Source of the DNA: Pseudoalteromonas tetraodonis
GTDB lineage: Bacteria; Pseudomonadota; Gammaproteobacteria; Enterobacterales; Alteromonadaceae
Assembly (NCBI RefSeq): GCF_002310835.1
Contig: NZ_CP011041.1
Span: 2,970,001 to 3,002,000 of the forward strand
Direction of reading: 5' to 3'
Length of the DNA stretch: 32,000 nucleotides
The notes under the pieces were generated by a model. That model worked only from the letters and a program-made list of their open reading frames with translations, was not told where the DNA came from and ran no database searches. How positions within the stretch are numbered: position 1 is the first letter of the stretch; every line of letters begins with the position of its first letter. Below are positions 1 to 30,018 of this stretch, piece after piece. A program made the position numbers and the translations under genes.

Positions 1-451
1 GAAAGTCATTAATCGCTTTGGCTTTTTGCTTTAATTCATCTTTAGCTAATGCAATCTGATCAAAGCTCTGTTTTACTTTTGCAAAATCGTTACTTGTTCC
101 GCGAAGTGCTGCGTAATAAGCCGCAATTCCCTCTAGCGCATGACGAAATTCTAATAAATCAAATTGCGATTCGGGGTGTTTACTGATCAAATCAAACAAC
201 GGATCAGTCAGTCCCTCCTCCAATTGATTTTTTACATACGTTCCACCACCTTGGCGACGGGTTACGAGCCCTTTTGCCTCAAGCTTTTGAATGGCTTCAC
301 GCAACGACGGACGCGACACTTCAAATTGCTTGGCGAGTTCACGCTCCGGTGGTAACTTTTCTCCTGGTGCTAACGACCCCTCAAGAATCATGTTCTCAAG
401 TTGTTGTAAAATAACATCAGATAATTTTGCCGCTTTAATTTTTAAAGACAT
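1..451 (-). CDS. pdhR: Pyruvate dehydrogenase complex repressor PdhR (GntR/FadR family). This is the N-terminal ~150 aa; the C-terminus runs off the window.
   Basis: Hand translation of the minus strand from the ATG (complement of 449-451) gives [73 protein letters not shown]...[27 protein letters not shown]. This closely matches E. coli PdhR through the winged-HTH and beyond. It is absent from the ORF track because it is open at the window edge. Confidence 0.9.
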
Positions 452-528
452 CAATCAACGTCCGCGTTGTATAAATGCTAGCAGCCCATTAAATAAGGCT
501 TTTAACTGAATGACCTGACCAAAAGGTA

Positions 529-546
529 AATTGGTCATACCAAATT
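529..546. promoter_or_regulatory. Putative PdhR operator (PdhR box) upstream of pdhR
   Basis: AATTGGT-CAT-ACCAAAT is a near-perfect palindrome. It matches the E. coli PdhR box core ATTGGTnnnACCAAT with one mismatch and lies ~80 bp upstream of the pdhR ATG. Confidence 0.6.
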
Positions 547-715
547 TTGCCATACGTTATCAAAAACCGTAATTACTGTCAATTTACAGCAGTTTTAAAG
601 CCCTAAGGCCAGCGTAACGTAATTTAAACAAAGTTCAAATAATACACAGATCACAGAGGGTAAAGAAAGGTTAATAAGATGAAAAACAAATGGTCAGACC
701 AGCTAATTTTTAATT

Positions 716-756
716 TTCGGGGTTCGGGGTTCGGGGTTCGGGGTTCGGGGTTCGGG
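716..756 (+). repeat. Perfect heptanucleotide tandem array (TTCGGGG) x5 plus TTCGGG. Six G-tracts are separated by TTC.
   Basis: Read directly from the sequence. G-tracts lie at 719-722, 726-729, 733-736, 740-743, 747-750 and 754-756. Confidence 0.97.
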
Positions 757-926
757 AAGAGATTATTGGATGCTCCCTTTATATCAATAAGTAAAATCAA
801 GATAAGTGTTTAATATTTACGAGGTAGACGCCGAGCTTGAAAAGCATAGCTTTAAATTATTTAAGCTCTACATTTGCTTCTAAAATATAAATTTTATTGT
901 AATCGAGAGTTTACCTCCCGCATATT

Positions 927-1056
927 TAGGGTCTAGGTTAAAGATCAAAGGTTTTAAGCCCGTTCCCCGTTGCTCATTGCTCGTAGCCCGCCAACACCAA
1001 GCAAATCACAGTGCTTGGCTTAATTTCTACCTAATACCTAGAACCTAACCCCTGCT
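927..1056. repeat. Composite intergenic mosaic element: a MITE-end-like fragment, a CCCGNNN heptad array, a hairpin with a conserved core, and an ACCTNNN heptad array
   Basis: TAGGGTCT/AGGTTAAA (927-942) resembles the end of the 1929-2196 element. In-phase heptads CCCGTTC CCCGTTG CTCATTG CTCGTAG CCCGCCA occupy 959-993. A hairpin CCAAGCA/TGCTTGG lies at 997-1018. The core GTGCTTGGCTTAATTTCT (1011-1028) is shared with 2865-2882. Heptads ACCTAAT ACCTAGA ACCTAAC CCCTGCT occupy 1029-1056, ending 2 nt from the ampE stop. Confidence 0.8.
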
Positions 1057-1058
1057 CT

Positions 1059-1910
1059 TTAACTTAAACCACCAAATAAAGTCATTAAAGCAATCAATAC
1101 TAAGTAGAAAAGTACATTTCGCTTAACCAGTTTGATCATACAGGTGGCCTCAAAGGTGCAACCATAGTAGCGCTCTTCAACTTGTTCAGCCGCTAGCGCC
1201 GTATAAGTAACCACCTTGCGATTAGGGCTTGAAAAGTCAAACACGTAATGTAGCCAACAGCTAGTCCCTTTATTAAAGTTACCAATCACTAAATAGCCAA
1301 AACTGGTAATACGCGCGGGGAGCCAATCAAGCCAAAACAATAAACGGTGGAGGAGTTTAAAATGCTTAGCAATGACTTCATCACGGTTGTCACTCACTAA
1401 GTCGGCAAAGGTACGTACTAATGCATAAAAAACAGCACCAGCAACGCCCAATACCACAAACCAAAATATAACCGCACAATAAAATCGAAAGTTAACCCAA
1501 GCCAGCGTTTGCCCTAAGGTTTCGCCGCCTTGTTGCTCCTCTGTGCGTTTTTGCCCTAATTGCAAAGCGTATAAGGTAGCTGCAGTTTGATCCCCTCGGG
1601 TCAGTGCATTTAAATACGACTTATACAAAGCGCGTTGCTTAGCACAACCAAAACAAACGAGTAACACCGCCACATTAAAAACAAGCTGCCAAAGTACAAA
1701 GTCAGATAAAAAATACACACACCCAATAGCAATCACAGGCAGGAATAGCCAAATTAAAAACCCCGTAGCTGTGCCAAATAAACCTTTATTGGTCAATAAA
1801 TTAACAGAGCGAGTTAAGTAGCCATTAGCGTAATAACTCATTTGCCAATGCGCAGAGCGAGCACCTAAACGCTCAAGTATCAGTGCTATTATTATTGAAA
1901 CCAAAATCAT
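1059..1910 (-). CDS. ampE: AmpE, inner-membrane protein of the ampDE beta-lactamase-induction/muropeptide recycling locus
   Basis: 283-aa multi-TM ORF. The N-terminus MILVSIIIALILERL...HWQ and the overall layout resemble E. coli AmpE, and it lies downstream of ampD as in enterics. Confidence 0.85.
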   Translation of the reverse strand: MILVSIIIALILERLGARSAHWQMSYYANGYLTRSVNLLTNKGLFGTATGFLIWLFLPVIAIGCVYFLSDFVLWQLVFNVAVLLVCFGCAKQRALYKSYLNALTRGDQTAATLYALQLGQKRTEEQQGGETLGQTLAWVNFRFYCAVIFWFVVLGVAGAVFYALVRTFADLVSDNRDEVIAKHFKLLHRLLFWLDWLPARITSFGYLVIGNFNKGTSCWLHYVFDFSSPNRKVVTYTALAAEQVEERYYGCTFEATCMIKLVKRNVLFYLVLIALMTLFGGLS

Positions 1911-1928
1911 GTTGTTACTCGCTTAATT

Positions 1929-2196
1929 TAGGGTCTGTTGACCTTTGCGGATTATAATTTGTTCAAACTAGGGGCGATTTAATCGCGGCGCGAGGTTTGT
2001 AACCTAGTGGGCTAAGTCAAAACCGAGCAACAAAGAGTAAATCGTCCCTAGGCAGAACCCGAAGGGCAGCGCCTGTTTGGCATTGATACTACGTTATCGC
2101 CTATTTATGGGGAATAACCACACCACATAGGCGCTGCCTTGCCTAAATACCAAACAGACTGCTGCAAATTTAACCTTGAAAGGTCAACAGACCCTA
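1929..2196. mobile_element. MITE-like non-autonomous element, 268 bp, with perfect 18-bp terminal inverted repeats
   Basis: TAGGGTCTGTTGACCTTT at 1929-1946 is the exact reverse complement of AAAGGTCAACAGACCCTA at 2179-2196, and imperfect complementarity continues to ~33 bp. Internal inverted repeats are CTAGGGGCGATTTA (1968-1981) with TAAATCGTCCCTAG (2038-2051), and GGGCAGCGCCT (2064-2074) with AGGCGCTGCC (2129-2138). There is no ORF. The terminal TA on each side could be a TA target duplication. Confidence 0.6.
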
Positions 2197-2197
2197 G

Positions 2198-2743
2198 TTA
2201 TTCAATTAGGTTGAAAAACTTACGCCAGTTAAAACTCGCTCCAGGGTCGGTTTTTCGCCCAGGGGCTATATCGCAATGCCCAACTATATTACTGGCTGTT
2301 ATTTTTGGATAGCGCTGCATAATAGCCTGCGCCAATGCAGCTAAACTTTGATATTGCGCATCGGTATAGTTAATTGTATCTGTGCCTTCAAGCTCTATAC
2401 CTATACTAAAATCATTACAATTTTGTTGCCCAGCAAAGCAGGAGTGCCCCGCATGCCATGCGCGTTTTTCAAAAGGCACATACTGTATAACTTCGCCGCA
2501 GCGCTTAATAAAACAATGCGCTGACACCTTAAGCCCCTCTAGGTCACTAAAGCTAGGGTGCGCATTACAATCAATACACCCCATAAATAAGTCATCAACG
2601 TAAGAAGTGTTAAATTGCCCAGCGGGTAATGAAATATTATGAATAACCAACAGCGAAATATCGTAGTGAGCAGGTCGCTCATCAAAGTGGCTACACGCCC
2701 GCTGGCTAATATTATTTATAACGCCTAAAGAATCTATTTTCAT
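2198..2743 (-). CDS. ampD: 1,6-anhydro-N-acetylmuramyl-L-alanine amidase AmpD
   Basis: 181-aa ORF with amidase_2 features (LLVIHNISLP..., HAGHS..., GHCDIAPGRKTDPG). It is divergent from nadC, as in E. coli. Confidence 0.93.
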   Translation of the reverse strand: MKIDSLGVINNISQRACSHFDERPAHYDISLLVIHNISLPAGQFNTSYVDDLFMGCIDCNAHPSFSDLEGLKVSAHCFIKRCGEVIQYVPFEKRAWHAGHSCFAGQQNCNDFSIGIELEGTDTINYTDAQYQSLAALAQAIMQRYPKITASNIVGHCDIAPGRKTDPGASFNWRKFFNLIE

Positions 2744-2767
2744 ACTATTTATTTAAAACTTATGTAG

Positions 2768-2953
2768 CCTAGAACCTAATACCTAATACCTAATACCGAC
2801 GCGGAATAAATCCGCTGCTACATGTGCGCGGCGTAAAGCCCCGCCTACACTCAACACAAACACCGTGCTTGGCTTAATCTCTGCCTAAACCTAGAACCTT
2901 TATTTTATAAACCCGCTGCCCGCATCCCGCTGCCCGTAGCTCGCAGCGCTCAG
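2768..2953. repeat. Composite intergenic mosaic element: heptad arrays, two direct REP-like hairpins and a conserved core
   Basis: CCTAGAA CCTAATA x3 occupy 2768-2795. GACGCGGAATAAATCCGCTGCTACA lies at 2798-2822 and GTGCGCGGCGTAAAGCCCCGCCTACA at 2824-2849. GTGCTTGGCTTAATCTCT lies at 2865-2882. CCCGCTG CCCGCAT CCCGCTG CCCGTAG CTCGCAG CGCTCAG occupy 2912-2953. Confidence 0.85.
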
Positions 2954-3135
2954 GTTAATCAACCAAAATTGATGTATATCAAGATGCTAATAGATTTAAT
3001 CCCATAAAGATAGCGTAATACTAAACGATAAAATATGATTAACGCGTTATTTAAGCGCTGGCTTTTTAGTTTAGTTGTTAGCCGCTTCTAATTAGTAATT
3101 AAACAGAGTAAAATTTAGTTAATTTATTATCTACT

Positions 3136-3993
3136 ATGAGCTTTTTCATGTCTATTTCGCACACCCTAATTAGCCAACTTGTTACTTTAGCACTGGATGA
3201 AGACCTAAATTATCAAAGCGCAGAACAAGGCGATATTACCGCGCAGCTCATTCCTCAAGCAGAGCAAGCCAATGCGAAAGTGATCACCCGTGAAGACTGC
3301 ATTTTTTGTGGTAAAGATCTAATCATTGAGGTGTTCAAACAAGTCGACCCAAGCGTGGTTGTAAACATATGCGTTAACGATGGCGACTTTGTTAGTGCCA
3401 ATAGCACTCTGTTCACCGCATCAGGCTCTGCTCGCGCTATTTTAACGGCTGAACGAACTGCACTTAATTTTGTACAAACGCTTTCTGGCACAGCCACCAC
3501 CACTGCGCACTATGTAAAAGAGTTAAGTGGCACTAGCACGCAACTGCTCGATACCCGTAAAACTATTCCAGGACTTAGAGCGCTACAAAAGTATGCAGTT
3601 AAGTGTGGTGGCGGTGCAAACCACCGAATTGGTTTGTTTGATGCGTTTTTAATTAAAGAAAACCACATAGCAGCCTGTGGAGGAATTAATAACGCAGTTA
3701 CTCAAGCTAAGCTAAATCATGCCGATAAACCGATAGAGGTTGAAGTTGAATCGTTTGATGAGCTAGAGCAAGCCATTAACGCAGGCGCCGACATTATTAT
3801 GTTAGATAATTTTAATCCAGAGCAAATACGCCAAGCAGTTAGCATTACAAATAAGCGCGCTAAGTTAGAAGTATCAGGCAATATGACCTTGGAAATACTA
3901 AAAGCCTACTCGCAAGCTGGTGTGGACTTTATCTCAAGTGGTGCGCTTACAAAAAATTTACAATCAATCGATTTATCGATGCGATTTGAGTAA
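3136..3993 (+). CDS. nadC: Nicotinate-nucleotide diphosphorylase (quinolinate phosphoribosyltransferase)
   Basis: 285-aa ORF with typical NadC motifs (ERTALNF, LDTRKT.PG.R, KYAV..GGG.NHR.GL.D..LIKENH, MLDNF). The start could be the downstream Met at aa 5. Confidence 0.95.
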   Translation: MSFFMSISHTLISQLVTLALDEDLNYQSAEQGDITAQLIPQAEQANAKVITREDCIFCGKDLIIEVFKQVDPSVVVNICVNDGDFVSANSTLFTASGSARAILTAERTALNFVQTLSGTATTTAHYVKELSGTSTQLLDTRKTIPGLRALQKYAVKCGGGANHRIGLFDAFLIKENHIAACGGINNAVTQAKLNHADKPIEVEVESFDELEQAINAGADIIMLDNFNPEQIRQAVSITNKRAKLEVSGNMTLEILKAYSQAGVDFISSGALTKNLQSIDLSMRFE

Positions 3994-4504
3994 ACAATGT
4001 AGAATTTATTTATATATTCTTAAGCTAATTGATTGACAGCTTTTAAAAAAGGGCATTAAATAATTCAAAAGGATTATTTGTAACAAGTTATTAAATTAAT
4101 GCGTTTTTTATAGTGTTTTTACATACAAAAGCGCAATAAACAGTGTTAGACTCATTCATATTGACTAGTTTTAAATTTTTAATTAGTTAAAAAGAGTGGA
4201 AAAGCATTTATAAGCGACAGAGTAAAAATAAGCGACAGGGTTTATTTTTATAATTAGCTTGTAACTTACGCGGGTTATAACTAACTTTTAATAGTTAGGT
4301 TTATACTCAAATAAGGGACGAGTAACGAATAACCGCCATGCAGTGCGTGTCTTTGCGACGAATATTTTACCGCTTATACACAGCACTAAATTTGGTAAAA
4401 TGATCTTATTTTTTTGTAGTAACAGGTTAAGTGAACACATAAGTTATATTTAAAAACTTATACCCGTTTGGCTTACCACAACATTATCCTTTAGGAGAGG
4501 AAAC

Positions 4505-4951
4505 ATGCAAACAATGACACAACAAAACCAAAAGGGTTTCACCCTAATTGAATTAATGATCGTAGTAGCAATAATCGGTATTCTTGCAGCGGTAGCGCTG
4601 CCTGCATATCAAGATTACACACTGAAAGCACGTTTTGCAGAAGTAAAAACATCAGCTGCTTCTGTTAAAACAACTATGGCACAGTGCTTACAGGAAAATA
4701 ACAATATTATAGCTGCTTGTAATACTTTCACAGAATTAGGCATAGCAGCTCCTGCAGCAAATGATAATTTAGCATCTGTAGCCATTGCAGCCACTGGTGT
4801 AATAACTGCTACAGGCACAGCAAGTGCTGGTGGTTATACATACACACTGACTCCACCTGTAATTGCGGCTGGTGATCCACCTCCATCAACTTTTGTATTT
4901 GCTGTAGGTGGCACATGCTCATCTCAAACAAGAATACCTAACCTTTGTTAA
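4505..4951 (+). CDS. pilA: Type IVa major pilin
   Basis: Class III signal peptide [11 protein letters not shown]|[27 protein letters not shown] with Glu+5. The C-terminal Cys pair (C138...C148) forms a disulfide loop. A strong RBS, GGAGAGG, lies upstream. Confidence 0.95.
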
Positions 4952-4963
4952 TAATAAGTTTAT

Positions 4964-4989
4964 AAAGGGCTATTTAGCCCTTTTTATTT
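4964..4989 (+). terminator. Intrinsic terminator after pilA
   Basis: 8-bp stem AAAGGGCT/AGCCCTTT, 4-nt loop, followed by a T-run. Confidence 0.8.
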
Positions 4990-4997
4990 GATGAACT

Positions 4998-6218
4998 ATG
5001 AAAAAAACAAATAAGCTAGATACATTTCAATGGATAGGTGTAAGCGCAAGAGGTAAACGTCTTGAAGGAGAGCTAGCGGGTTCTAGCATAGCCTTGGTGA
5101 AAGCCCAATTACGTAAACAAGGTATTACTCCCTCAAAAGTCAAACGAAAAGCAAAACCTTTGTTTGGCCTACAAAGCGTGCAAAAAATCACCCCAAAAGA
5201 TATTGCTATAGTTACTCGACAAATAGCTACTATGCTTATGGCGGGTGTGCCGTTGATACAATCCATAGAAATGATAGGTTCTGGTTCCACCAACAAAAGT
5301 GTGAGTAAATTAATGGCCGTTATTGGTGATGAAGTGAAAGCTGGTCAACCATTATCAATGGCACTCAGAAAACATCCCCGTTATTTTGATGATTTATATT
5401 GCGATTTAGTAGCATCAGGCGAGCAGTCGGGCTCGCTTGATAAAATATTTGATCGCGTTGCGCTTTATAAAGAAAAGTCAGAAGCGCTAAAATCAAAAAT
5501 TAAAAAAGCCATGTTTTATCCAGCAGCAGTTTTAGTTGTGGCATTCATTGTTACCTCTATTTTGTTAATTTTTGTAGTACCGCAATTTCAGGATATTTTT
5601 GCAGGTTTTGGTGCAGAACTGCCTGCTTTTACTTTATTTGTGATTGGTATTTCAGAATTTATGCAAGCCAACTGGTGGATAGCCCTAATTGGCGTTGTGG
5701 CATTCGGTTATATATTTAAAGAAGTACATTTAAGAAGTTTAAAACTGCGTGATGCCACTGACCGCGCCATACTTAAACTCCCGGTTATTGGCATGATACT
5801 TAATAAAGCAGCGGTGGCGCGTTATGCACGTACTTTATCGACCACCTTTGCTGCGGGTGTACCATTGGTGGATGCTTTGGATTCTGCAGCAGGTGCCTCT
5901 GGTAACGCAATTTACCGGTATGCTATTTTAGAAATAAAAGCCGAGGTAAGCTCAGGCAATCAAATGAACTGGGCGATGCGTAATTCAAAAATATTCCCAG
6001 ATATGGTAATACAAATGGTTGCCATTGGTGAAGAGTCAGGTTCGCTTGATGGCATGCTCGCAAAAGTAGCAACTATCTACGAGCAAGAAGTAGATGACGC
6101 GGTAGATGGCTTATCAAGCCTATTAGAGCCGTTAATAATGGCAGTACTCGGCGTACTAGTCGGTGGCTTAATTGTGGCCATGTACTTACCTATTTTCCAA
6201 CTAGGTTCTGTTATTTAG
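4998..6218 (+). CDS. pilC: Type IV pilus platform protein PilC (GspF family)
   Basis: 406-aa ORF with two GspF-type repeats and 3 TM segments. It is strongly similar to Pseudomonas PilC (e.g. GELAG...LVKAQLRKQGI, GEESG.LD). Confidence 0.95.
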   Translation: MKKTNKLDTFQWIGVSARGKRLEGELAGSSIALVKAQLRKQGITPSKVKRKAKPLFGLQSVQKITPKDIAIVTRQIATMLMAGVPLIQSIEMIGSGSTNKSVSKLMAVIGDEVKAGQPLSMALRKHPRYFDDLYCDLVASGEQSGSLDKIFDRVALYKEKSEALKSKIKKAMFYPAAVLVVAFIVTSILLIFVVPQFQDIFAGFGAELPAFTLFVIGISEFMQANWWIALIGVVAFGYIFKEVHLRSLKLRDATDRAILKLPVIGMILNKAAVARYARTLSTTFAAGVPLVDALDSAAGASGNAIYRYAILEIKAEVSSGNQMNWAMRNSKIFPDMVIQMVAIGEESGSLDGMLAKVATIYEQEVDDAVDGLSSLLEPLIMAVLGVLVGGLIVAMYLPIFQLGSVI

Positions 6219-6385
6219 CTTCGAGCTTCGAGTTTCTAGGCCCGTTACCCGAAGCCCGTTGCCCGCAACTAAAGTGCGCGGCATAAAGCCCCGCCTACAA
6301 AACAATTAAAACGCGGTGGTTCCCCACAACTCGTCGCCCGTTGCCCGAACCTCAAACCTAACACCTTGAACCTCGAACCTAATTT
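6219..6385. repeat. Composite intergenic mosaic element between pilC and pilD
   Basis: It starts 1 nt after the pilC TAG. In-phase heptads CTTCGAG CTTCGAG TTTCTAG GCCCGTT ACCCGAA GCCCGTT GCCCGCA occupy 6219-6267. The REP-like unit GTGCGCGGCATAAAGCCCCGCCTACA lies at 6274-6299. In-phase heptads CTCGTCG CCCGTTG CCCGAAC CTCAAAC CTAACAC CTTGAAC CTCGAAC CTAATTT occupy 6330-6385. Confidence 0.85.
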
Positions 6386-6442
6386 TGCACTTATGTAAAA
6401 CCACTGTATTATCAACACAGAATTTAGTTTTAGGTAAGATAA

Positions 6443-7354
6443 ATGCATACTTTTTTTATTGATATCACCGCCGCAATGCAAAGCCATTTATGGTTTTACT
6501 TAACCACGATTGGCCTAGTGAGTTTATGTATTGGTAGCTTTTTAAATGTGGTGATTTATCGCTTGCCACTAATGATGCAAAAAGAATGGCAAACTGAATG
6601 CCGCTTATTATTAGCCGATGAACTAACCAGCCCAAAGGCTAAACAGACCACCTCACAAACTACTGACACGTTTAACTTAGTTAAACCCAACTCATGTTGC
6701 CCAAAGTGCAAAGCGGCGATTAAACCGTGGCAAAATATTCCCATTATTAGTTGGTTATTTTTAAAAGGTAAATGCGCAACCTGTAACAACCCAATATCAG
6801 TACGTTACCCAATCGTTGAAGCCATTACTGCTATTTTAAGTTTAGTGGTTGCCTACACCTTTGGCGCTACAGAGCAGGCTTTATTATACATAGTAGTTAC
6901 TTGGGCGTTGGTAGCACTGACTTTTATTGATATTGATCACATGCTACTGCCGGACCAGCTTACTTTGCCACTTTTATGGTTAGCGTTAATCGCCTCAGTT
7001 ATGGGTTATACCATTGCCCCTAGCGATGCCATTATTGGCGCAGCATGTGGCTATTTAAGCTTATGGAGTGTGTTTTGGTTGTTTAAATTAATAACCGGCA
7101 AAGAAGGCATGGGCTATGGCGACTTTAAATTACTGGCGGTGTTTGGAGCCATACTGGGTTGGCAATCGTTATTGACCATTATTTTGCTCTCAAGCGTAGT
7201 TGGCGCTGTAATTGGCATTGCTCTACTGAGTATTCAAGGTAAAGACAAAGCAACCCCCATTCCTTTTGGTCCTTACTTAGCAATAGCCGGTTGGTTCACT
7301 ATGCTATGGGGCACGCAACTGCAAAACAGCTATTTTAATTTTATTGGCTACTAA
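6443..7354 (+). CDS. pilD: Prepilin peptidase / N-methyltransferase PilD (A24 family)
   Basis: 303-aa ORF with a Cys-rich motif (CPKC...CATC) and multiple TM segments with the GYGDFKL catalytic region. The true start may be Met12 (6476), which aligns better with PilD N-termini. Confidence 0.93.
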   Translation: MHTFFIDITAAMQSHLWFYLTTIGLVSLCIGSFLNVVIYRLPLMMQKEWQTECRLLLADELTSPKAKQTTSQTTDTFNLVKPNSCCPKCKAAIKPWQNIPIISWLFLKGKCATCNNPISVRYPIVEAITAILSLVVAYTFGATEQALLYIVVTWALVALTFIDIDHMLLPDQLTLPLLWLALIASVMGYTIAPSDAIIGAACGYLSLWSVFWLFKLITGKEGMGYGDFKLLAVFGAILGWQSLLTIILLSSVVGAVIGIALLSIQGKDKATPIPFGPYLAIAGWFTMLWGTQLQNSYFNFIGY

Positions 7355-7356
7355 CT

Positions 7357-7986
7357 ATGAGCAATACACAACATCATAAAAATAACTGGGTATTGGGACT
7401 AACTGGCGGGATTGGCTGTGGTAAAACCGCCGTAAGCAATATGTTGGCAGAACTAGGTATTACTATTGTGGATGCTGATATAGTGGCTCGCCAAGTGGTT
7501 GAACCCGGCACTGATGGCCTAAAAGCGATTATTGCGCATTTTGGCAATGATATACTCGATGAACATGGCGCTTTAAATCGCAGCACGCTAAGAGCGCGCA
7601 TTTTTAGTAACCCTGAGCAAAAAACATGGCTCAATGCCCTGCTGCACCCATTAATACGCACTCAGCTTATTATTGATTTAAAAAACGCGCAAAGCGACTA
7701 CGTGGTGTTAGTTGCCCCACTATTATTTGAAAATGGGCTTGATGGCTACTGTCATCGTACTTTGCTAATAGATGTTCCCAAAGAGGTGCAAATTGCACGT
7801 ACTACACAGCGCGACAAAATAAGCATTGAACAAGCAGAGCAAATTATTGACGCGCAAATGTCTCGAGAGCATAAACAACAAAAAGCGGATGATATTTTAA
7901 ATAATAACCGCGACCTAAGCGATGTAAAACAAGACTTACTTAAACTGCATAATTATTATTTACAGCAAGCTAAGTCTACAATATAA
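7357..7986 (+). CDS. coaE: Dephospho-CoA kinase
   Basis: 209-aa ORF with the P-loop GLTGGIGCGKT. It lies immediately downstream of pilD, as in many gammaproteobacteria. Confidence 0.93.
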   Translation: MSNTQHHKNNWVLGLTGGIGCGKTAVSNMLAELGITIVDADIVARQVVEPGTDGLKAIIAHFGNDILDEHGALNRSTLRARIFSNPEQKTWLNALLHPLIRTQLIIDLKNAQSDYVVLVAPLLFENGLDGYCHRTLLIDVPKEVQIARTTQRDKISIEQAEQIIDAQMSREHKQQKADDILNNNRDLSDVKQDLLKLHNYYLQQAKSTI

Positions 7987-8119
7987 ATAAATTAACCCAA
8001 TCACAGCGCAATAAACTGATATTTTTATCAGTAAAAATCGCTTGGATTGGTACGATTAATGTATTCCTTTCTTTTTTCTGATAAATTGCTGACTAAAGAA
8101 GGATTAAATCAGGTGCGCA

Positions 8120-9796
8120 ATGAATATTAACTCACCGTTATTAAGAAAATTTATTACCCTCGGCCGGGTTGATACTGATACCGTAAAAACACGGCAGCAA
8201 GATTTTGCGTCAACTGCAGAGCTTATCTCTAAATGTGGAAAAATAGACAGTAAAGATTTAGCTGAGCAATGCATTGATTTATTTAGAGTGCCTTTTTTTG
8301 ATTTAAAAGATTTTAATGTTGCACAAATATCAGCTGAGCTGGTTAAAGAAAAACTGATCCGCAAACACCATATTTTGCCTTTGGTACAAAAAGGCAGAAA
8401 AGTGTATATTGCCGCCTCAGATCCTACCGATTATGGTGCCTTCGAAAACTTTGAATTTAGCACGGGTTTATCGTGCGAAGTAGTTGTGGTTGACTACGTC
8501 CAGCTCGATAACAAAATTGAGCAATTACTCGATGCCACTGGCAGTTTAAATTTAAGTGAAGACGAATTTAAAGAGTTCGCTGAACTCGATTCTGAGCAGC
8601 ACAAAGAACACACTCCTAAAGACGATGACAAAGACGACGCCCCGATTATTGTCTACATTAATAAAATTTTAATGGATGCAATAAAAAAAGGCGCCTCAGA
8701 TTTACACTTTGAACCTTATGAACACAAATACCGTATTCGCTTTCGTATTGATGGTATTTTGCACGAAGTAGCCAGTCCGCCAAATACTTTAGCCAGTAAA
8801 TTATCAGCGCGAATAAAAGTAATGTCGCGACTGGATATTGCAGAAAAGCGTAAACCACAAGATGGCCGTATTAAGCTTAAGGTAACAGAGCGTAAAAGCA
8901 TTGATTTTCGTGTTAGTACCATGCCAACTTTGTGGGGCGAAAAAATTGTAATGCGTATTCTTGATTCATCCAGTGCCATGCTAGGTATTGATGTATTAGG
9001 CTATGAACCCGAGCAGAAAAAACTATACCTCGATGCACTTGAGCAACCGCAAGGAATGATTTTGGTTACAGGCCCAACCGGTTCAGGTAAAACGGTTTCT
9101 TTGTATACGGGCTTAAATATACTAAATCAGCCGGAGCGGAATATTAGTACCGCCGAAGATCCGGTAGAAATTAACCTCGAAGGGGTTAACCAAGTACAAA
9201 TAAATACTAAAGCAGATATGACTTTTGCTAATGCACTGCGGGCGTTTTTACGTCAAGATCCCGATGTGGTGATGGTGGGTGAAATACGTGATTTAGAAAC
9301 TGCAGAAATATCAATTAAAGCGGCGCAAACAGGTCACTTGGTGCTCTCAACACTGCATACCAATTCAGCGCCAGAAACGATTACTCGTTTGTTAAATATG
9401 GGTGTACCCGCGTATAATGTGGCCAGTTCTATTAGTTTAATTATAGCTCAGCGTTTAGCCCGAAGGTTATGCTCTAAATGTAAAACACCAGAGCAGTTAC
9501 CTCGCGAAGAGCTTATACGCCAAGGCTTTAGTGAACAACAAATTCAAGACATGGTTTTATACGCACCTAAAGGCTGTGAAAACTGTACCGATGGCTACAA
9601 AGGCCGTGTTGGTATTTACGAAGTAATGAAAATTACGCCTGAAATTGCCCAAATTATAATGCGCGGCGGTAACTCATTAGAAATTGCTGAGGTATCACTT
9701 AAAGCAGGGTTTAATAACATACGCTTATCAGGTCTTCGAAAAGCCGCAGAGGGTGTGACCTCACTTGCTGAGATAAACCGTGTCACTAGTTTTTAA
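8120..9796 (+). CDS. pilB: Type IV pilus assembly ATPase PilB (GspE family)
   Basis: 558-aa ORF with Walker A GPTGSGKT, Asp/His boxes and the tetracysteine motif CSKC...CENC. It shows long stretches of identity to P. aeruginosa PilB (e.g. [49 protein letters not shown]). Confidence 0.95.
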
Positions 9797-9861
9797 ATAA
9801 AGTGCTTAGTTGCTTAACAATAAATTGAGCGGCTAAGCCTATGTTAATTTGAGAGTAAATT

Positions 9862-10092
9862 ATGCCAACTATGGTTAACTGCCCAAACTGCAAAGCACAA
9901 GTAGAATGGTCAGCACAAAGTCCGCACCGCCCTTTTTGTTCAAAGCGTTGCCAACTTATTGATTTAGGTGAATGGTCGTTTGAAAATAATAAAATTTCCG
10001 CGCCGATTACAGCTGCAGATGAGTTCAATCAAGACATGATTGAAGACATTGAAGCAATGATGGCAAAAAACGAAGATGACTTTTTTAAGTGA
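9862..10092 (+). CDS. yacG: DNA gyrase inhibitor YacG (zinc-finger protein)
   Basis: 76-aa ORF with CPNC...[15 protein letters not shown], the YacG Zn-ribbon signature. Confidence 0.9.
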
Positions 10093-10100
10093 TTTTTAAA

Positions 10101-10143
10101 GGTTCGAGGTTCGAGGTTCGAGGTTCGAGGTTCGAGGTTCGAG
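10101..10143 (+). repeat. Perfect heptanucleotide tandem array (GGTTCGA) x6
   Basis: Read directly from the sequence. It starts 8 nt after the yacG stop and ends 7 nt before the terminator stem. Confidence 0.97.
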
Positions 10144-10150
10144 AAATTTA

Positions 10151-10182
10151 AAAACCTTGCAGTTAACATAGCAAGGTTTTTT
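10151..10182. terminator. Bidirectional intrinsic terminator (yacG on +, probably cpxP on -)
   Basis: Perfect 10-bp stem AAAACCTTGC/GCAAGGTTTT and a 10-nt loop. An A-run lies upstream and a T-run downstream, so it can work on both strands. Confidence 0.8.
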
Positions 10183-10187
10183 ATACC

Positions 10188-10229
10188 TGTAGCAGCGGGT
10201 TTACCCCGCGTCAGTATTAGGTTTTAGGT
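10188..10229 (-). repeat. REP-like hairpin unit plus ACCTAAN heptads, in reverse orientation
   Basis: TGTAGCAGCGGGTTTACCCCGCGTC (10188-10212) is the reverse complement of a unit homologous to 2798-2822. AGTATTAGGTTTTAGGT that follows is the reverse complement of ACCTAAA ACCTAAT ACT. Confidence 0.8.
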
Positions 10230-10238
10230 CATTTATCT

Positions 10239-10325
10239 ACCACAGAGGTGCAGAGCACACAGAGAAAGTGACAATAAATGATCTTCTCTCTGTGGAGCGC
10301 AAAGCGCCTCTGCTCCCTCTGTGGT
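10239..10325. other. 87-nt multi-stem palindromic element (candidate structured RNA or palindromic repeat)
   Basis: P1 is ACCACAGAGG (10239-10248) with CCTCTGTGGT (10316-10325), a perfect 10 bp. P2 is GCAGAG (10250-10255) with CTCTGC (10308-10313). P3 is CACAGAGA (10258-10265) with TCTCTGTG (10287-10294), plus 3 further bp. P4 is the mini-hairpin GCGC-AAA-GCGC (10297-10307). The CACAGAG motif occurs four times, twice in each orientation. Confidence 0.55.
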
Positions 10326-10336
10326 TCAAAATATTC

Positions 10337-10435
10337 TGTAGATACAAGGCGGGGCTTCGGGCGACGAGTTTCGATCAGCGGGCTTCGGGTTGCGGACCTC
10401 GCCCCTCGCACCTCGCCCCTCGCACCTCGCCCTAT
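10337..10435. repeat. Partial REP-like unit plus 12 in-phase heptads abutting the cpxP stop codon
   Basis: TGTAGATACAAGGCGGGGCTT lies at 10337-10357. Then come GGGCTTC GGGCGAC GAGTTTC GATCAGC GGGCTTC GGGTTGC GGACCTC GCCCCTC GCACCTC GCCCCTC GCACCTC GCCCTAT (10352-10435). Confidence 0.85.
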
Positions 10436-10908
10436 TACCTGCGGCGCTGCTGTATTTTAGCTAACTTTTCTTTTTGCTCAGCGTTAAGCAGTTGCATTAC
10501 TTGATGCTGGGTTTTCAATTTAATTAATCCCAATTGCTGCTTCTTATCTTGGCGTGCGGTTAATAACTCTTTCGCTGCATTTTCGTCAAAGTTTGGCGCT
10601 GACAATAACGCATCCATCTGCGCTTTATAAGCTTGGCGCTGTGCCTTACGCGCGTCTTTATTTTGGCTTCTTAGTGCTTTAATTTGCGTTTTTTGCGCTG
10701 TAAAAATCGCTTTTAGTTGTGTTTGTTGATCTTCAGTAAGCGCCAGTTTATCTGCAGCTCGCTCAGAGAGTAAAAAGCGTGCTTGAGAGTGCCCTTGTTT
10801 ATGGCCATCACCTTTTGCAAGTGCGCTGCCCGCACTGAGCGTTGCTGCTGTTAAGCCACATATAAGTACTAATTTTGATAGCGTGTTTATCTTAGTCATA
10901 ATCATCAC
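10435..10908 (-). CDS. cpxP: Periplasmic stress adaptor CpxP/Spy family protein
   Basis: 157-aa ORF with a signal peptide (…SAGSALA) and two LTXXQ-type motifs (LTEDQ, LNAEQ). It is divergent from cpxRA, as in E. coli. Confidence 0.85.
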   Translation of the reverse strand: MMIMTKINTLSKLVLICGLTAATLSAGSALAKGDGHKQGHSQARFLLSERAADKLALTEDQQTQLKAIFTAQKTQIKALRSQNKDARKAQRQAYKAQMDALLSAPNFDENAAKELLTARQDKKQQLGLIKLKTQHQVMQLLNAEQKEKLAKIQQRRR

Positions 10909-25380: not shown

Positions 25381-26244
25381 TTAACTCATCGCACTTTGTA
25401 ATTTTTTCATTGCTGTTTTTTCCAGCTGGCGAACACGCTCTGCTGATACGCTGTATTTTTCAGCCAACTCTTGCAGTGTTGCTTTATCATCTGACAACCA
25501 GCGTGCGCTAACGATATCTTGAGAACGCTCATCGAGGGTTTTCAAAGCGCTAAATAATCGCGTATGCGACTGCTCTTGCCATTGTTGCTGCTCAATATCA
25601 TCGGCTAAGTCAGCAGAACCATCGGTTAAGTATTGTACCGGTGAGTAAGTACTGGTTGGCGCATCGTCGTTATCGTCGCCCGTTAAGTCAAAGCCCATGT
25701 CTTGGCCGCTCATACGCGATTCCATTTCACGCACTTCTTTTTCACTCACACCTAGCTCGCTCGCTACTGTGCTAACTTCGGCTTGATTAAACCAGCCTAA
25801 ACGTTTTTTGTTTTTACGAAGATTAAAAAACAGTTTACGTTGCGCTTTGGTTGTCGCAACTTTTACGATACGCCAGTTTTTAAGCACAAACTCATGAATT
25901 TCGGCTTTGATCCAATGAACCGCAAATGAAACCAAACGTACACCCACTGATGGGTCAAAACGTTTTACTGCCTTCATCAGTCCAATGTTACCCTCTTGAA
26001 TTAAATCAGCTTGGGGTAACCCGTAACCCGAGTAGCTTTTAGCTATGTGCGCTACAAAGCGCAAATGCGACATAATGAGTTGCTTTGCAGCACTAAGATC
26101 GCCTTCTTCCTGAAGTTTTTTTGCAAGTTCCTGCTCTTGCTCAACTTTAAGCATAGGAATAGTACTAACAGCCTGAAGATAGCCATCCATACTTGCGCTT
26201 TGTTGCCCAACTGTAAGTGCCATTGCGTATAAATCTTTACTCAT
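25381..26244 (-). CDS. rpoH: RNA polymerase heat-shock sigma factor sigma-32
   Basis: 287-aa ORF with the RpoH box ([13 protein letters not shown]), sigma-70 regions 2-4 and a GAGGTG RBS. It lies downstream of ftsYEX, as in E. coli. Confidence 0.96.
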
Positions 26245-28233: not shown

Positions 28234-30018
28234 TTAAACGTCGTCCTCATCTTGGCTAAATAGCGCGTCAATAAAGTCATCGCTCTTGAAGGTGCGTAAA
28301 TCATCAATACTTTCACCTACACCAATGTAACGAATAGGAATATTAAACTTATCAGCAACGGCAAAAATAACCCCGCCTTTAGCAGTGCCATCAAGCTTTG
28401 ATAGTGTGATACCTGTTAAACCTACACATTGGTTAAATAAGTTTACTTGGCTAATAGCATTTTGGCCTGTGCCAGCATCAATTGTCAGCATCACTTCATG
28501 CGGTGCATCTGGGTCTACTTTTTTCATCACACGGGCTATTTTTTCAAGCTCTTGCATTAAGTTATCTTTATTTTGCAAGCGCCCTGCTGTATCGGCAATT
28601 AACACATCAACATTACGCGCTTTAGCGGCTTGAAAGGCATCAAATACCACTGAGGCGCTATCAGCACCAGTGTGCTGAGCTATAACAGGAATACTATTAC
28701 GCTCACCCCAAACTTGAAGCTGCTCTACTGCTGCGGCTCTAAATGTATCACCGGCAGCAAGCATTACCGATTTACCTTGGTTTTGAAATTGTTTCGCCAT
28801 TTTACCAATGGTGGTGGTTTTACCTACGCCGTTTACACCTACCATAAGGATAACGAAAGGTTTTTTGTCTGCTGGTATTTCTAAAGGCTGCTCTGCTGTT
28901 TTCAGCATAGTTGCCATTTCTTGCTTCATTAATTCATAAAGCGCATCACCATCTTTAAGCTGCTTGCGATCAGCGGCGTCGGTCAGGCTATCGATTAGCT
29001 TCATGGTGGTATCAACACCAAGATCGGCAGTGAGTAACTGAGTCTCTAATTCTTCAAATAACTCATCGTCAATTTTTTTACCGCTGAAAATTGAGGCAAA
29101 GCCAGAACCAATATTAACGCGTGTTTTCAGTAAGCCTTTTTTGAGGCGAGAGAAAAAACCTTCTTTTTTAGGTTTTTCCGCTTTTATAGCTTCTTCCTTT
29201 GCAAGCTCTGCGGTCAGTCGCTCTTGCTCTAGGCGTTCAGACTCCTCTTCAGCAGCCAGACGCTCTTGTTCTAAACGCTCGTTCTCAGCTTGCTCTGCTG
29301 CAATACGCTGTTGTTCTAAACGCTCGTTCTCAGCTTGTTCTGCTGCAATGCGCTGTTGTTCTAAACGCTCGTTCTCAGCTTGCTCTGCTGCAATACGCTG
29401 TTGTTCTAAACGCTCGTTCTCAGCTTGCTCTGCTGCAATACGCTGTTGTTCTAAACGCTCGTTCTCAGCTTGTTCTGCTGCAATACGCTGTTGTTCTAAA
29501 CGCTCGTTCTCAGCTTTTTCTGCTGCAATGCGCTCTTGCTCTAACTGCATTTGCGCTTCTTGTTCTGCTAAACGTTTGGCTTGCTCTTGTCTTTGCTGCT
29601 CTGCATCTGCCTGCTGTTTAGCTAATAGCTCTGCGTTAGCCTGTTCAATCGCTTGTTTTTCTTCTGCCGCTGCGCGCTGTGCTTGCGCCTGTTTCTCTTG
29701 CTCTAAACGCTCGGCCTCTGCTTCAACTTGTAAACGCTCTACCGCAGCTTGCTCTGCAGCTAAACGTTCTTGCTCGGCTTTTTCTGCTTGCTCTTGTGCT
29801 AAACGATCTTGTTCAGCTGCAATTCGTGCTTGTTCTATACGCTCGGCTTCTGCTTCAGCTTGTAAGCGCTCTGCCTCAGCTTGCTCTGCAGCTAAACGCT
29901 CTTGTTCGGCTTTTTCTGCCTGCTCTTTTGCGAATGCTTGTTGTTTATCAGCTTCTGCTTGTTTTTTATCTGACTTGCCAAAACCGAGCCACGACATGAA
30001 TTTACTTTTTTTTGCCAT
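28234..30018 (-). CDS. ftsY: Signal recognition particle receptor FtsY with an expanded repetitive acidic A-domain
   Basis: 594-aa ORF. The C-terminal NG domain carries GVNGVGKTTTIGK, DTAGR and TKLDGTAKGG. The N-terminal ~290 aa are built from E/Q/A/R-rich repeats. Confidence 0.96.
   Translation of the reverse strand: MAKKSKFMSWLGFGKSDKKQAEADKQQAFAKEQAEKAEQERLAAEQAEAERLQAEAEAERIEQARIAAEQDRLAQEQAEKAEQERLAAEQAAVERLQVEAEAERLEQEKQAQAQRAAAEEKQAIEQANAELLAKQQADAEQQRQEQAKRLAEQEAQMQLEQERIAAEKAENERLEQQRIAAEQAENERLEQQRIAAEQAENERLEQQRIAAEQAENERLEQQRIAAEQAENERLEQQRIAAEQAENERLEQERLAAEEESERLEQERLTAELAKEEAIKAEKPKKEGFFSRLKKGLLKTRVNIGSGFASIFSGKKIDDELFEELETQLLTADLGVDTTMKLIDSLTDAADRKQLKDGDALYELMKQEMATMLKTAEQPLEIPADKKPFVILMVGVNGVGKTTTIGKMAKQFQNQGKSVMLAAGDTFRAAAVEQLQVWGERNSIPVIAQHTGADSASVVFDAFQAAKARNVDVLIADTAGRLQNKDNLMQELEKIARVMKKVDPDAPHEVMLTIDAGTGQNAISQVNLFNQCVGLTGITLSKLDGTAKGGVIFAVADKFNIPIRYIGVGESIDDLRTFKSDDFIDALFSQDEDDV
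29276..29545 (-). repeat. In-frame 45-bp tandem repeat inside ftsY: five near-identical copies plus one degenerate copy
   Basis: Units lie at 29276-29320, 29321-29365, 29366-29410, 29411-29455 and 29456-29500. They differ only at two synonymous positions, and each encodes ERLEQQRIAAEQAEN. A degenerate copy lies at 29501-29545. Confidence 0.95.
29698..29925 (-). repeat. Older in-frame duplication in the ftsY A-domain: two ~96-bp segments offset by 132 bp
   Basis: 29698-29793 and 29830-29925 encode EQAEKAEQERLAAEQAAVERLQVEAEAERLEQ and EQAEKAEQERLAAEQAEAERLQAEAEAERIEQ. Confidence 0.8.

Follow-up and report, generated by a model that had tools for sequence, protein, structure and literature searches.

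Repeat-bearing spacers around ampD and nadC

The DNA considered here is a 32,000-nt stretch of the Pseudoalteromonas tetraodonis genome (contig NZ_CP011041.1, positions 2,970,001 to 3,002,000; hereafter the window, with positions counted from its first nucleotide), and our subject is the repeat-rich spacer between its divergent genes ampD and nadC. The window's AmpD has the same sequence as the protein of P. tetraodonis strain GFC and two further protein records of that species. Segment 2768-2953 of this spacer combines two hairpins of the repetitive extragenic palindromic (REP) type, an 18-nt core and runs of 7-nt units, or heptads, and such repeats are confined to four spacers in the window's first ~11 kb (Table 1). 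An earlier note on this DNA had described that anatomy, and the hairpins, the core and the heptads all lie where it placed them. Its CCTANAA heptads after the core are present too, except that the unit at 2884-2889 has 6 nt (CCTAAA) where relatives carry CCTAAAA. Related modules do cluster in the first 10.5 kb, as the note had said, with only a 2.1-copy period-7 trace later on, at 26016 (Tandem Repeats Finder, TRF).

Table 1. Repeat modules, spacers and genes of the window.
Feature	Positions	Strand or orientation	Basis
REP1, GACGCGGAATAAATCCGCTGCTACA; stem 2801-2805 / 2811-2815, loop ATAAA	2798-2822	CTAC-3' orientation on +	
REP2, GTGCGCGGCGTAAAGCCCCGCCTACA	2824-2849	same as REP1 of 2798-2822	pattern match, fold
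REP2 and degenerate inverted partner, REPIN-like, 12-nt spacer	6274-6299 (REP2), 6312-6331 (partner)	+	sequence, pattern match
REP1, reads GTAGCAGCGGGTTTACCCCGCGTC on + strand	10189-10212	-	pattern match
Degenerate REP2 (GTAG...GGCGGGGC); six GG-phased heptads (10354-10395); CC-phased CCTCGCC/CCTCGCA x5 (10396-10432)	10338-10432		TRF, sequence
Hairpin CCAAGCA-N8-TGCTTGG overlapping core GTGCTTGGCTTAATTTCT (core 1011-1028)	997-1028	+	DNA fold, -6.6 kcal/mol, z = -2.6
Linker ctcaacacaaacacc and 18-nt core GTGCTTGGCTTAATCTCT (core 2865-2882)	2850-2882	+	core pattern match
G, CCTAAA, CCTAGAA heptads (with CCTTTAT; heptad stretch 2884-2903) and terminus CCTTTATTTTATAAA	2883-2911	+	sequence
(TTCGGGG)x5.9 array, pdhR-ampE spacer	716-756	+	TRF, 100% matches
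GGTCTAG/GTTAAAG heptads, then GC-rich GCCCGTT CCCCGTT GCTCATT GCTCGTA GCCCGCC	926-990	+	sequence
ACCTAAT ACCTAGA ACCTAAC heptads after core	1029-1049	+	sequence
CCTAGAA (2768-2774) and CCTAATA x3 (2775-2795)	2768-2797	+	sequence, TRF
GC-rich heptads CCCGCTG CCCGCAT CCCGCTG CCCGTAG CTCGCAG CGCTCAG	2912-2953	+	sequence, TRF
CTTCGAG x2, TTTCTAG, GCCCGTT ACCCGAA GCCCGTT GCCCGCA, directly 3' of pilC stop codon	6219-6265	+	TRF, sequence
GCCCGTT GCCCGAA, then ACCTCAA ACCTAAC ACCTTGA ACCTCGA ACCTAAT	6335-6385	+	TRF, sequence
(AGGTTCG)x6.3, between yacG stop codon and terminator-like hairpin (~10153-10183)	10100-10143	+	TRF, sequence
TATTAGG TTTTAGG heptads abutting REP1	10215-10228	+	sequence
ampE to pdhR spacer, repeat-bearing	474-1058	codirectional genes	
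ampD/nadC spacer, repeat-bearing	2744-3135	divergent genes	
pilC to pilD spacer, repeat-bearing	6219-6442	codirectional genes	
yacG/cpxP spacer, repeat-bearing	10093-10434	convergent genes	
pdhR	ends at 473	-	Pfam GntR/FCD annotation
ampE	1059-1910	-	NCBIfam match
ampD	2198-2743	-	NCBIfam match
nadC	3136-3993	+	NCBIfam match
pilA, pilC, coaE, pilB		+	NCBIfam match
pilD		+	Pfam peptidase A24
yacG		+	Pfam PF03884
cpxP	10435-10908	-	NCBIfam match
cpxR		+	NCBIfam match

The hairpins are constrained as REPs

The hairpin pattern occurs four times in the window, in three spacers, where 0.05 copies would be expected. All four copies carry CTAC at the 3' end and fold with a 5-bp stem and a 5-nt loop. 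Across 35 aligned copies beginning with GTAG, taken from nine Pseudoalteromonas sources, the GTAG head (G4, T5, A6, G7) and the TTT of the loop are invariant, and 98.3% of stem cells are paired. Double changes fill 24 cells (GC/AU, and GC/CG/UA/AU), with G-C, A-U, C-G and U-A replacing one another at both inner pairs. None of 500 shuffles reached this level of pairing and covariation, and slid controls paired at 62% or less. REP1 at 2798-2822 itself has a compensatory variant, GCGGA/TCCGC, with an A-T pair where other copies have G-C. REP copies are also found in at least six other Pseudoalteromonas species, including classical clusters of alternating orientation (loci L012, L034 and L083 of our comparison set). 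Clear REPINs, that is, inverted REP pairs, are seen in L083 and L134. The note's assignment of the hairpins to the GTAG type served by REP-associated tyrosine transposases (RAYTs) is strengthened by the covariation and by identity to REPs that flank RAYT genes in congeners, and it is well supported, on the aligned copies, that they are genuine REPs of the GTAG super-family. With the REPs, REPINs and bacterial interspersed mosaic elements (BIMEs) of E. coli, Pseudomonas and Stenotrophomonas (PMC3733652) they share the GTAG head on an imperfect GC-rich palindrome; extragenic, multi-copy occurrence with presence/absence polymorphism; clusters in which REPs mix with other conserved motifs and are amplified in tandem; and a RAYT gene flanked by the same REP inverted, here in congeners. 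What differs is the very short 5-bp stem and the conserved TTTAY loop. In its text and the supplements searched, the GTAG-REP catalogue published by Di Nocera et al. in 2013 (PMC3733652) makes no mention of Pseudoalteromonas. The REPIN-type fold of 6274-6331, whose partner is degenerate, scores z = -1.0, no better than shuffles; a long hairpin at 10337-10435, at z = 0.23 likewise no better than shuffles, was rejected.

Within the genus, a link between REP1 and a transposase is shown in congeners. Queries for translated searches (tblastn) of PLSDB were the RayT of E. coli, one RAYT from Opitutales and P0205, a RAYT of Pseudoalteromonas arctica. With E. coli RayT as query, a Y1_Tnp gene comes to light in an Opitutales locus, and the Opitutales RAYT in turn recovers a transposase on the chromid of Pseudoalteromonas sp. 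Bsw20308, which sits within an array of GTAG REPINs of another sequence family and has numerous homologues in Pseudoalteromonas whose source records carry the name REP-associated tyrosine transposase. It was the one Pseudoalteromonas chromid RAYT from PLSDB, and its REP family is a different one. Two of its homologues, the RAYT genes P0205 (L138) and P0241 (L139-L146), have REP1 on both sides, inverted: upstream lies GACGCGGGGTAAACCCGCTGCTAC, and downstream lies GTAGCAGCGGGTTTACCCCGCGTC, base-for-base the sequence of window positions 10189-10212, abutting the RAYT stop codon in L138 and L140. There the stop codon TAG lies in the GTAG head of the downstream REP (4448-4450 in L138, 879-881 in L140), such that gene end and REP overlap. 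The P. arctica RAYT is 33% identical to the Opitutales RAYT (89 bits) and 23% identical to E. coli RayT (53 bits). No cognate RAYT for REP2 was identified among the RAYT genes found.

A composite unit, and not one discrete element

The 18-nt core has two exact matches in the window against 0.13 expected. Scanning metagenomes for it gave 47 stretches, of which about half are chance matches in unrelated contexts; roughly 25 are true copies, on contigs of ~40% GC and from at least 10 independent loci as judged by their flanks. Every true copy is followed by (A/G)CCTWW heptads in variable number and then by a conserved terminus, CCTTTRTYTTTAA (consensus across L154, L159, L173, L175 and L185), and is usually preceded by a ~15-nt linker (tyaayccaaacacc) and REP2, often with REP1 ahead of REP2. 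The unit can be written as REP2, linker, core GTGCTTGGCTTAATYTCT, (ACCTWWW)n and terminus CCTTTRTYTTTAA, and the order of its modules is constant across at least 10 loci. The idea of a modular mosaic whose modules recur elsewhere is borne out at 10 or more independent loci outside the window. E. coli BIMEs follow the same logic of REPs and fixed non-REP motifs in fixed order with tandem amplification (for the present unit, three copies in L161 and two in L170, besides four REP2-containing units in the pilC-pilD spacer of L129), but here REP1 and REP2 are direct instead of alternating, and the heptad array serves both as linker and as an integral variable module.

In ampD-nadC orthologues, a ~137-nt block (heptads, REP1, REP2, linker, core) occurs once in the window, twice in L170 and three times in L161. 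The boundaries of the tandem blocks fall inside heptads, as unequal exchange between flanking arrays predicts. Such repetition, together with the same module order at non-orthologous loci, might suggest an archetype, with all 186 nt of the segment transposing together as a single discrete mobile element. We regard this as highly improbable, because the modules come apart: the ampD-nadC spacer of L130 and L131 (275 nt) holds GC-rich heptads alone, with neither REPs nor core; core and heptads occur without a REP at 927-1056 and in L159 and L185; the REP clusters of L012, L034 and L083 have no heptads; and the segment lacks terminal inverted repeats and target duplications. The description of 2768-2953 as an archetype must accordingly be given up, since relatives have either the heptad-only spacer (two of them) or two to three tandem units (others); the segment is one polymorphic state of a mosaic. 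Like miniature inverted-repeat transposable elements (MITEs), the mosaic is small, non-autonomous, intergenic and polymorphic in presence, but it has no terminal inverted repeats, and its hairpins are subterminal and would act single-stranded, in the manner of Y1 transposases.

Rfam gave no match at the gathering score over the whole window and none at E of 1 or less over 400-10600. By eye and by promoter scan the core holds no convincing integration host factor site or sigma-70 promoter, and the whole spacer found only one weak match among plasmids. Our literature searches turned up no description of Pseudoalteromonas REPs, BIMEs or heptads. As far as the searched literature shows, there is no earlier description of the REP-core-heptad unit carried by the P. 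tetraodonis clade, a BIME-like variant whose novelty appears to lie in the packaging of REPs with heptads, not in either kind of repeat.

Heptad arrays and their register

No tandem period but 7 is in excess in the window. TRF reports period-7 arrays at 716-756, 2774-2797, 2912-2936, 6217-6265, 6348-6380, 10100-10143 and 10396-10432. Among 28-nt windows with at least 22 self-matches, 69 are at lag 7 and 46 at lag 14, with none at any other lag from 2 to 15. Over 5.3 kb of intergenic DNA, identity at lag 7 reaches 0.306, where dinucleotide shuffles give 0.271 (z = 5.5); lag 14 follows at z = 4.7 and the next best lag at z = 3.4, while coding DNA gives no signal (lag-7 identity 0.249). The autocorrelation that the note had proposed measuring is thus above that of shuffled sequence. 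In 220 kb of Pseudoalteromonas loci we count 54 period-7 arrays against 18 for the next period. A CC or GG dinucleotide is present in 56 of 63 arrays and in 22 of 29 distinct units, compared with 40% of random 7-mers, which agrees with the CC (or GG) register noted before; the consensus is CC-Y-N-N-H-R. Unrelated loci, and unrelated species, have units in common (AACCTAA x11 in L136, GCCTAGA in L127).

As a phenomenon the heptad periodicity, which the note had not recognised from classical REP descriptions, is not new. Many bacterial genomes hold an excess of heptameric simple-sequence repeats (SSRs), among them intergenic arrays whose origin is unexplained (PMC4692102, PMC4679880). Known cases are GGGAATC in Xanthomonas and GGGGAYT in Nostoc (PMC4692102), the short tandemly repeated repetitive sequences (STRRs) of Calothrix and Nostoc, and TAACTGA in Beggiatoaceae, cyanobacteria and Bacteroidetes (PMC4679880); PMC4692102 cites polymerase slippage as a hypothesis, and Pseudoalteromonas enters PMC4679880 only as a source of open reading frames (ORFs) matching translated TAACTGA repeats. 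The arrays described here share with those SSRs and STRRs intergenic tandem 7-nt units in three or more copies with variants side by side, one unit at many loci, lengths that vary in close relatives, and an unexplained origin and function. They differ from the SSRs in their unit family, R-CC-Y-N-N-H (ACCTAAT, ACCTCGA, CCCGCTG, CCCCGAA), and in that one class of array lies between the 18-nt core at one end and the conserved terminus at the other, and is linked to REPs.

Variation among close relatives

Four close relatives (L128-L131, with AmpD 90-96% identical to that of the window) were compared with the window spacer by spacer, and they show the polymorphism in presence and in unit number that the note had suggested looking for. 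Arrays lie at orthologous positions and yet differ by whole units. (TTCGGGG)n has 6 copies in the window, about 20-27 in L128 and L129 and at least 10 in L130; (AGGTTCG)n has 6 in the window, 10 in L128, 8 in L130 and 3 in L131, and is absent from L129, whose 59-nt yacG-cpxP spacer has a plain terminator. The heptads of 926-990 differ in unit number in L130 and L131, those following the core at 1029-1049 reach 5-9 units in the relatives L161 and L172, and those of 6335-6385 differ in unit type and number in every relative compared. Where the pilC-pilD spacer of the window has mixed units, relatives have blocks, (AACCTTT)7(AACCTAG)4 or (AACCTTG)6(AACCTCG)3, and uniform runs of one variant unit like these are what slippage leaves behind once a point mutation has arisen. 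The heptads behave, to judge from these comparisons, as hypermutable heptanucleotide SSRs, and slippage is the probable mechanism of their length change.

REP modules vary as well. The 61-nt segment with REP2 and its partner (6274-6331 region) is present in L130 and absent in L131; in L129 the REP2-containing segment of the pilC-pilD spacer is amplified as four ~130-nt units; and REP2 is intact in L128 at the site of the window's degenerate copy (10338-10432). Across window and relatives, spacer lengths range over 275, 392 and 510 nt for ampD-nadC, 59 and 342 nt for yacG-cpxP, and 197 and 634 nt for pilC-pilD. Public contigs end in or beside the repeats (L002, the ends of L130 and L131, L003-L007), for example in (TTCGGGG)n or, after ampD, at a MITE-like insertion described below, and the mosaics appear to break short-read assemblies and also to spawn spurious ORF calls.

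Do the mosaics serve the host?

Given arrays that change so readily beside genes for the type IV pilus, AmpD and AmpE, and CpxP, one might expect contingency (phase-variation) loci that switch or grade neighbouring surface and envelope genes. The large copy-number polymorphism and the clustering of arrays around pilA-pilC-pilD-pilB and envelope-stress genes fit such a role, and heptanucleotide SSR control of hmw1A is documented (PMC8262952). The Haemophilus influenzae hmw1A/hmw2A promoter repeats are likewise 7-nt SSRs of changing copy number, but their place in the promoter is fixed and they demonstrably affect expression, whereas the Pseudoalteromonas arrays occur in every kind of spacer. 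No array in the window lies within an ORF or between predicted -35 and -10 hexamers, several follow a stop codon or occupy a convergent spacer, and the same arrays sit beside unrelated genes at other loci, and for these reasons we think contingency control very unlikely.

It is also conceivable, though improbable in our estimation, that heptads are recognition modules, one R-CC-Y (or R-GG-Y) unit being read every 7 nt by a protein or RNA to tune mRNA stability or translation. Candidate readers would be cold-shock proteins of the OB fold, at ~7 nt each, or pairing between Shine-Dalgarno-like AGGT and anti-Shine-Dalgarno-like ACCT. The unit register is indeed non-random (CC-Y-N-N-H-R), unrelated loci and species share units, some arrays directly adjoin stop codons and one comes within 25 nt of the start codon of ampD, and both cold-shock-protein binding of heptamer repeats and a translational role for TAACTGA have been proposed (PMC4679880). 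But either strand is used, the RNA being CC-type after pilC and upstream of pdhR and GG-type after yacG and cpxP; copy number is unconstrained in close strains and the array is sometimes absent (L129); Rfam has no match; and descent from element-borne seed sequences can explain the common register.

Whole modules are dispensable and array lengths unconstrained among close strains, and since nothing points to a host function we infer that the mosaic has none. Side effects are likely. Should ampD have its promoter in the conserved stretch of the spacer near nadC, transcription would include the mosaic as a long 5' untranslated region (UTR) of ampD. A consensus promoter match lies there at 3154-3126 on the - strand, in a region where the scan found fewer promoter-like sites than in shuffles, which is not evidence of function.

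Are heptads tied to the REP/RAYT system?

Another reading holds that heptads are produced or seeded by REP/RAYT activity, through duplication of REP arms by slippage at stalled hairpins or aberrant cleavage and ligation by the Y1 transposase, such that an excess of heptamers would be a footprint of REPs. Heptads abut REPs in P. tetraodonis, in P. shioyasakiensis (L127) and in strain XI10 (L097), and they abut a near-identical REP in metagenome-assembled genomes (MAGs) of Opitutales (e.g. L020, L038, L060), Rhodobacteraceae and Acidobacteria. All three REP-bearing spacers of the window are among the four that bear heptads, and the recurrent unit CCCGCTG is the exact 3' arm of REP1. Genera rich in heptamers (Xanthomonas, Nostoc; PMC4692102) and those rich in GTAG repeats (Opitutus terrae; PMC3733652) overlap. 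Set against this, 12 of 144 Opitutales REPs lie within 120 nt of an array compared with 2.6 for random positions, which by a rough estimate is about what shared intergenic residence gives, and we therefore discarded adjacency outside the window as evidence of coupling. None of the 12 REP-pattern matches in other Pseudoalteromonas loci is near an array. A fixed polarity between the heptad C-strand and the CTAC strand of the REP, which looked promising in the window (5 of 5), fails overall (9 vs 6, p = 0.6). The likeness of units to REP 7-mers is marginal, with 19 of 29 within one mismatch and 24 of 500 shuffles doing as well. E. coli, with its REPs, BIMEs and RayT, is not known to have heptad arrays. 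Seeding of heptads by REPs consequently seems doubtful to us, with low odds.

Our searches found no paper linking heptamers with REPINs or RAYTs. The wider proposition that heptads are an integral, transmissible module of REP/RAYT-type elements, seeded by and carried with them and possibly a substrate for recombination or insertion, is one we would call unlikely. If it were true, the unexplained intergenic heptamer excess would be the footprint of one class of Y1-transposase-dependent elements in groups that include cyanobacteria, Xanthomonas, Opitutales and Pseudoalteromonas, and the R-CC-Y register would be what the machinery recognises.

Among the matches listed from a degenerate REP-pattern scan of genome contigs, most are from Opitutales and at least six are Pseudoalteromonas loci. 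A REP nearly identical to Pseudoalteromonas REP2, ATCGCGGCGTAAAGCCGCTCCTACA, occurs in more than 100 loci of Opitutales/Verrucomicrobiota and a few other MAGs (L008-L126; for example L038 3850-3872, L060 482-504 and L015 3012-3812), an abundance that fits the reported GTAG-repeat richness of Opitutus terrae (PMC3733652). The other carriers are a few MAGs of Acidobacteria, Victivallales and Rhodobacteraceae. This REP often forms inverted pairs, a Y1_Tnp gene lies ~1.1 kb from two copies in L015, and genomes that carry it also hold dispersed heptad arrays with the recurring units AATTCCT, TTCAGCC and CAGTGGT.

A BIME-like mosaic of probably selfish or neutral DNA

Starting from the anatomy, the constraint on the hairpins, their dispersal and the polymorphism in copy number and presence, we favour reading the ampD/nadC spacer as a BIME-like mosaic of non-coding REPs, the composite unit and hypermutable heptads, probably selfish or neutral, and we put the probability of this reading at roughly 0.7. 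A RAYT (an IS200-like Y1 transposase) supplied in trans would recognise the REP1 and REP2 hairpins on single-stranded DNA and disperse them. The composite unit ((REP1) REP2, ~15-nt linker, GTGCTTGGCTTAATYTCT, (ACCTWWW)n, CCTTTRTYTTTAA) would then multiply in tandem as the heptad arrays on its own flanks recombine unequally. The heptads, both those within the unit and the free-standing GC-rich, (TTCGGGG)n and (AGGTTCG)n arrays, would grow, shrink and homogenise by replication slippage. Most likely the mosaic is tolerated as selfish or neutral DNA in permissive spacers, and any effects on the ampD, nadC, pil and cpxP transcripts, such as longer UTRs and extra hairpins, would be incidental.

Several observations weigh against this reading. 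The REP stems of the window are short, at 5 bp, with folds of -5 to -6 kcal/mol and z of just -1.2 to -2.6. The REP1/REP2 doublet of 2798-2849 is direct, both copies ending ...CTACA on the + strand, and not in the inverted order of REPINs or classical BIMEs; the orientation is likewise direct in L158, L161, L170 and L173. There is no RAYT in the window, and none of the best 120 RAYT homologues could be tied to P. tetraodonis, whose REPs may therefore be orphans; contigs with P0241 derive from other samples. RAYT-driven transposition is presumed, and the one clean indel (L130 vs L131) is flanked by an 8-nt direct repeat and is equally explicable as a deletion. Finally, slippage alone leaves unexplained why 7 is the sole period, why the units have R-CC-Y in common and why the same ones appear at loci that are unrelated.

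REPs and heptamer repeats are both decades-old puzzles, and heptamers lack an accepted mechanism. The clade makes both tractable in a natural setting: fixed sequences enclose a heptad array linked to REPs with a RAYT identifiable in congeners, and the wide copy-number differences of close strains make mutation rates, RAYT dependence and effects on neighbouring genes directly measurable. The mosaics could also serve as high-resolution Pseudoalteromonas strain markers. Their importance would rise sharply if heptads proved a general, mechanistically linked companion of REP/RAYT systems.

Other features of the window

Two further repeat elements accompany the mosaics. A MITE-like insertion of ~268 nt at 1929-2196, in the ampE-ampD spacer, has 31-nt terminal inverted repeats (TAGGGTCTGTTGACCTTT..., 81% complementary); L128 and L129 carry it too, L130 and L131 do not, their ampE-ampD spacer being just 14 nt, and a second copy of the inverted-repeat pair lies at L182 914-1224. 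A dispersed palindromic module with CCACAGAG/CTCTGTGG inverted repeats occupies 10236-10330 in the yacG-cpxP spacer. It recurs at L127 25420-26111, L161 5347-5559, L164 3297-3702 and L175 10555-10582, and in the orthologous spacer it is present in L131, partial in L128 and absent in L129 and L130.

The pilus locus (4505-9796) differs among close strains, with pilin lengths from 141 to 152 aa, two pilin genes in L128 (7243-8119) and a Wzy_C/PglL-like gene between pilA and pilC in L130 (6219-7886); in the window, pilB lies downstream of coaE and does not adjoin pilC. Towards the far end, a 594-aa ORF (28234-30018, - strand) contains 45-nt tandem repeats (6.3 copies, 95% matches, 29260-29544) and 132-nt tandem repeats (1.8 copies, 29697-29934), both presumably coding repeats of a repetitive protein.

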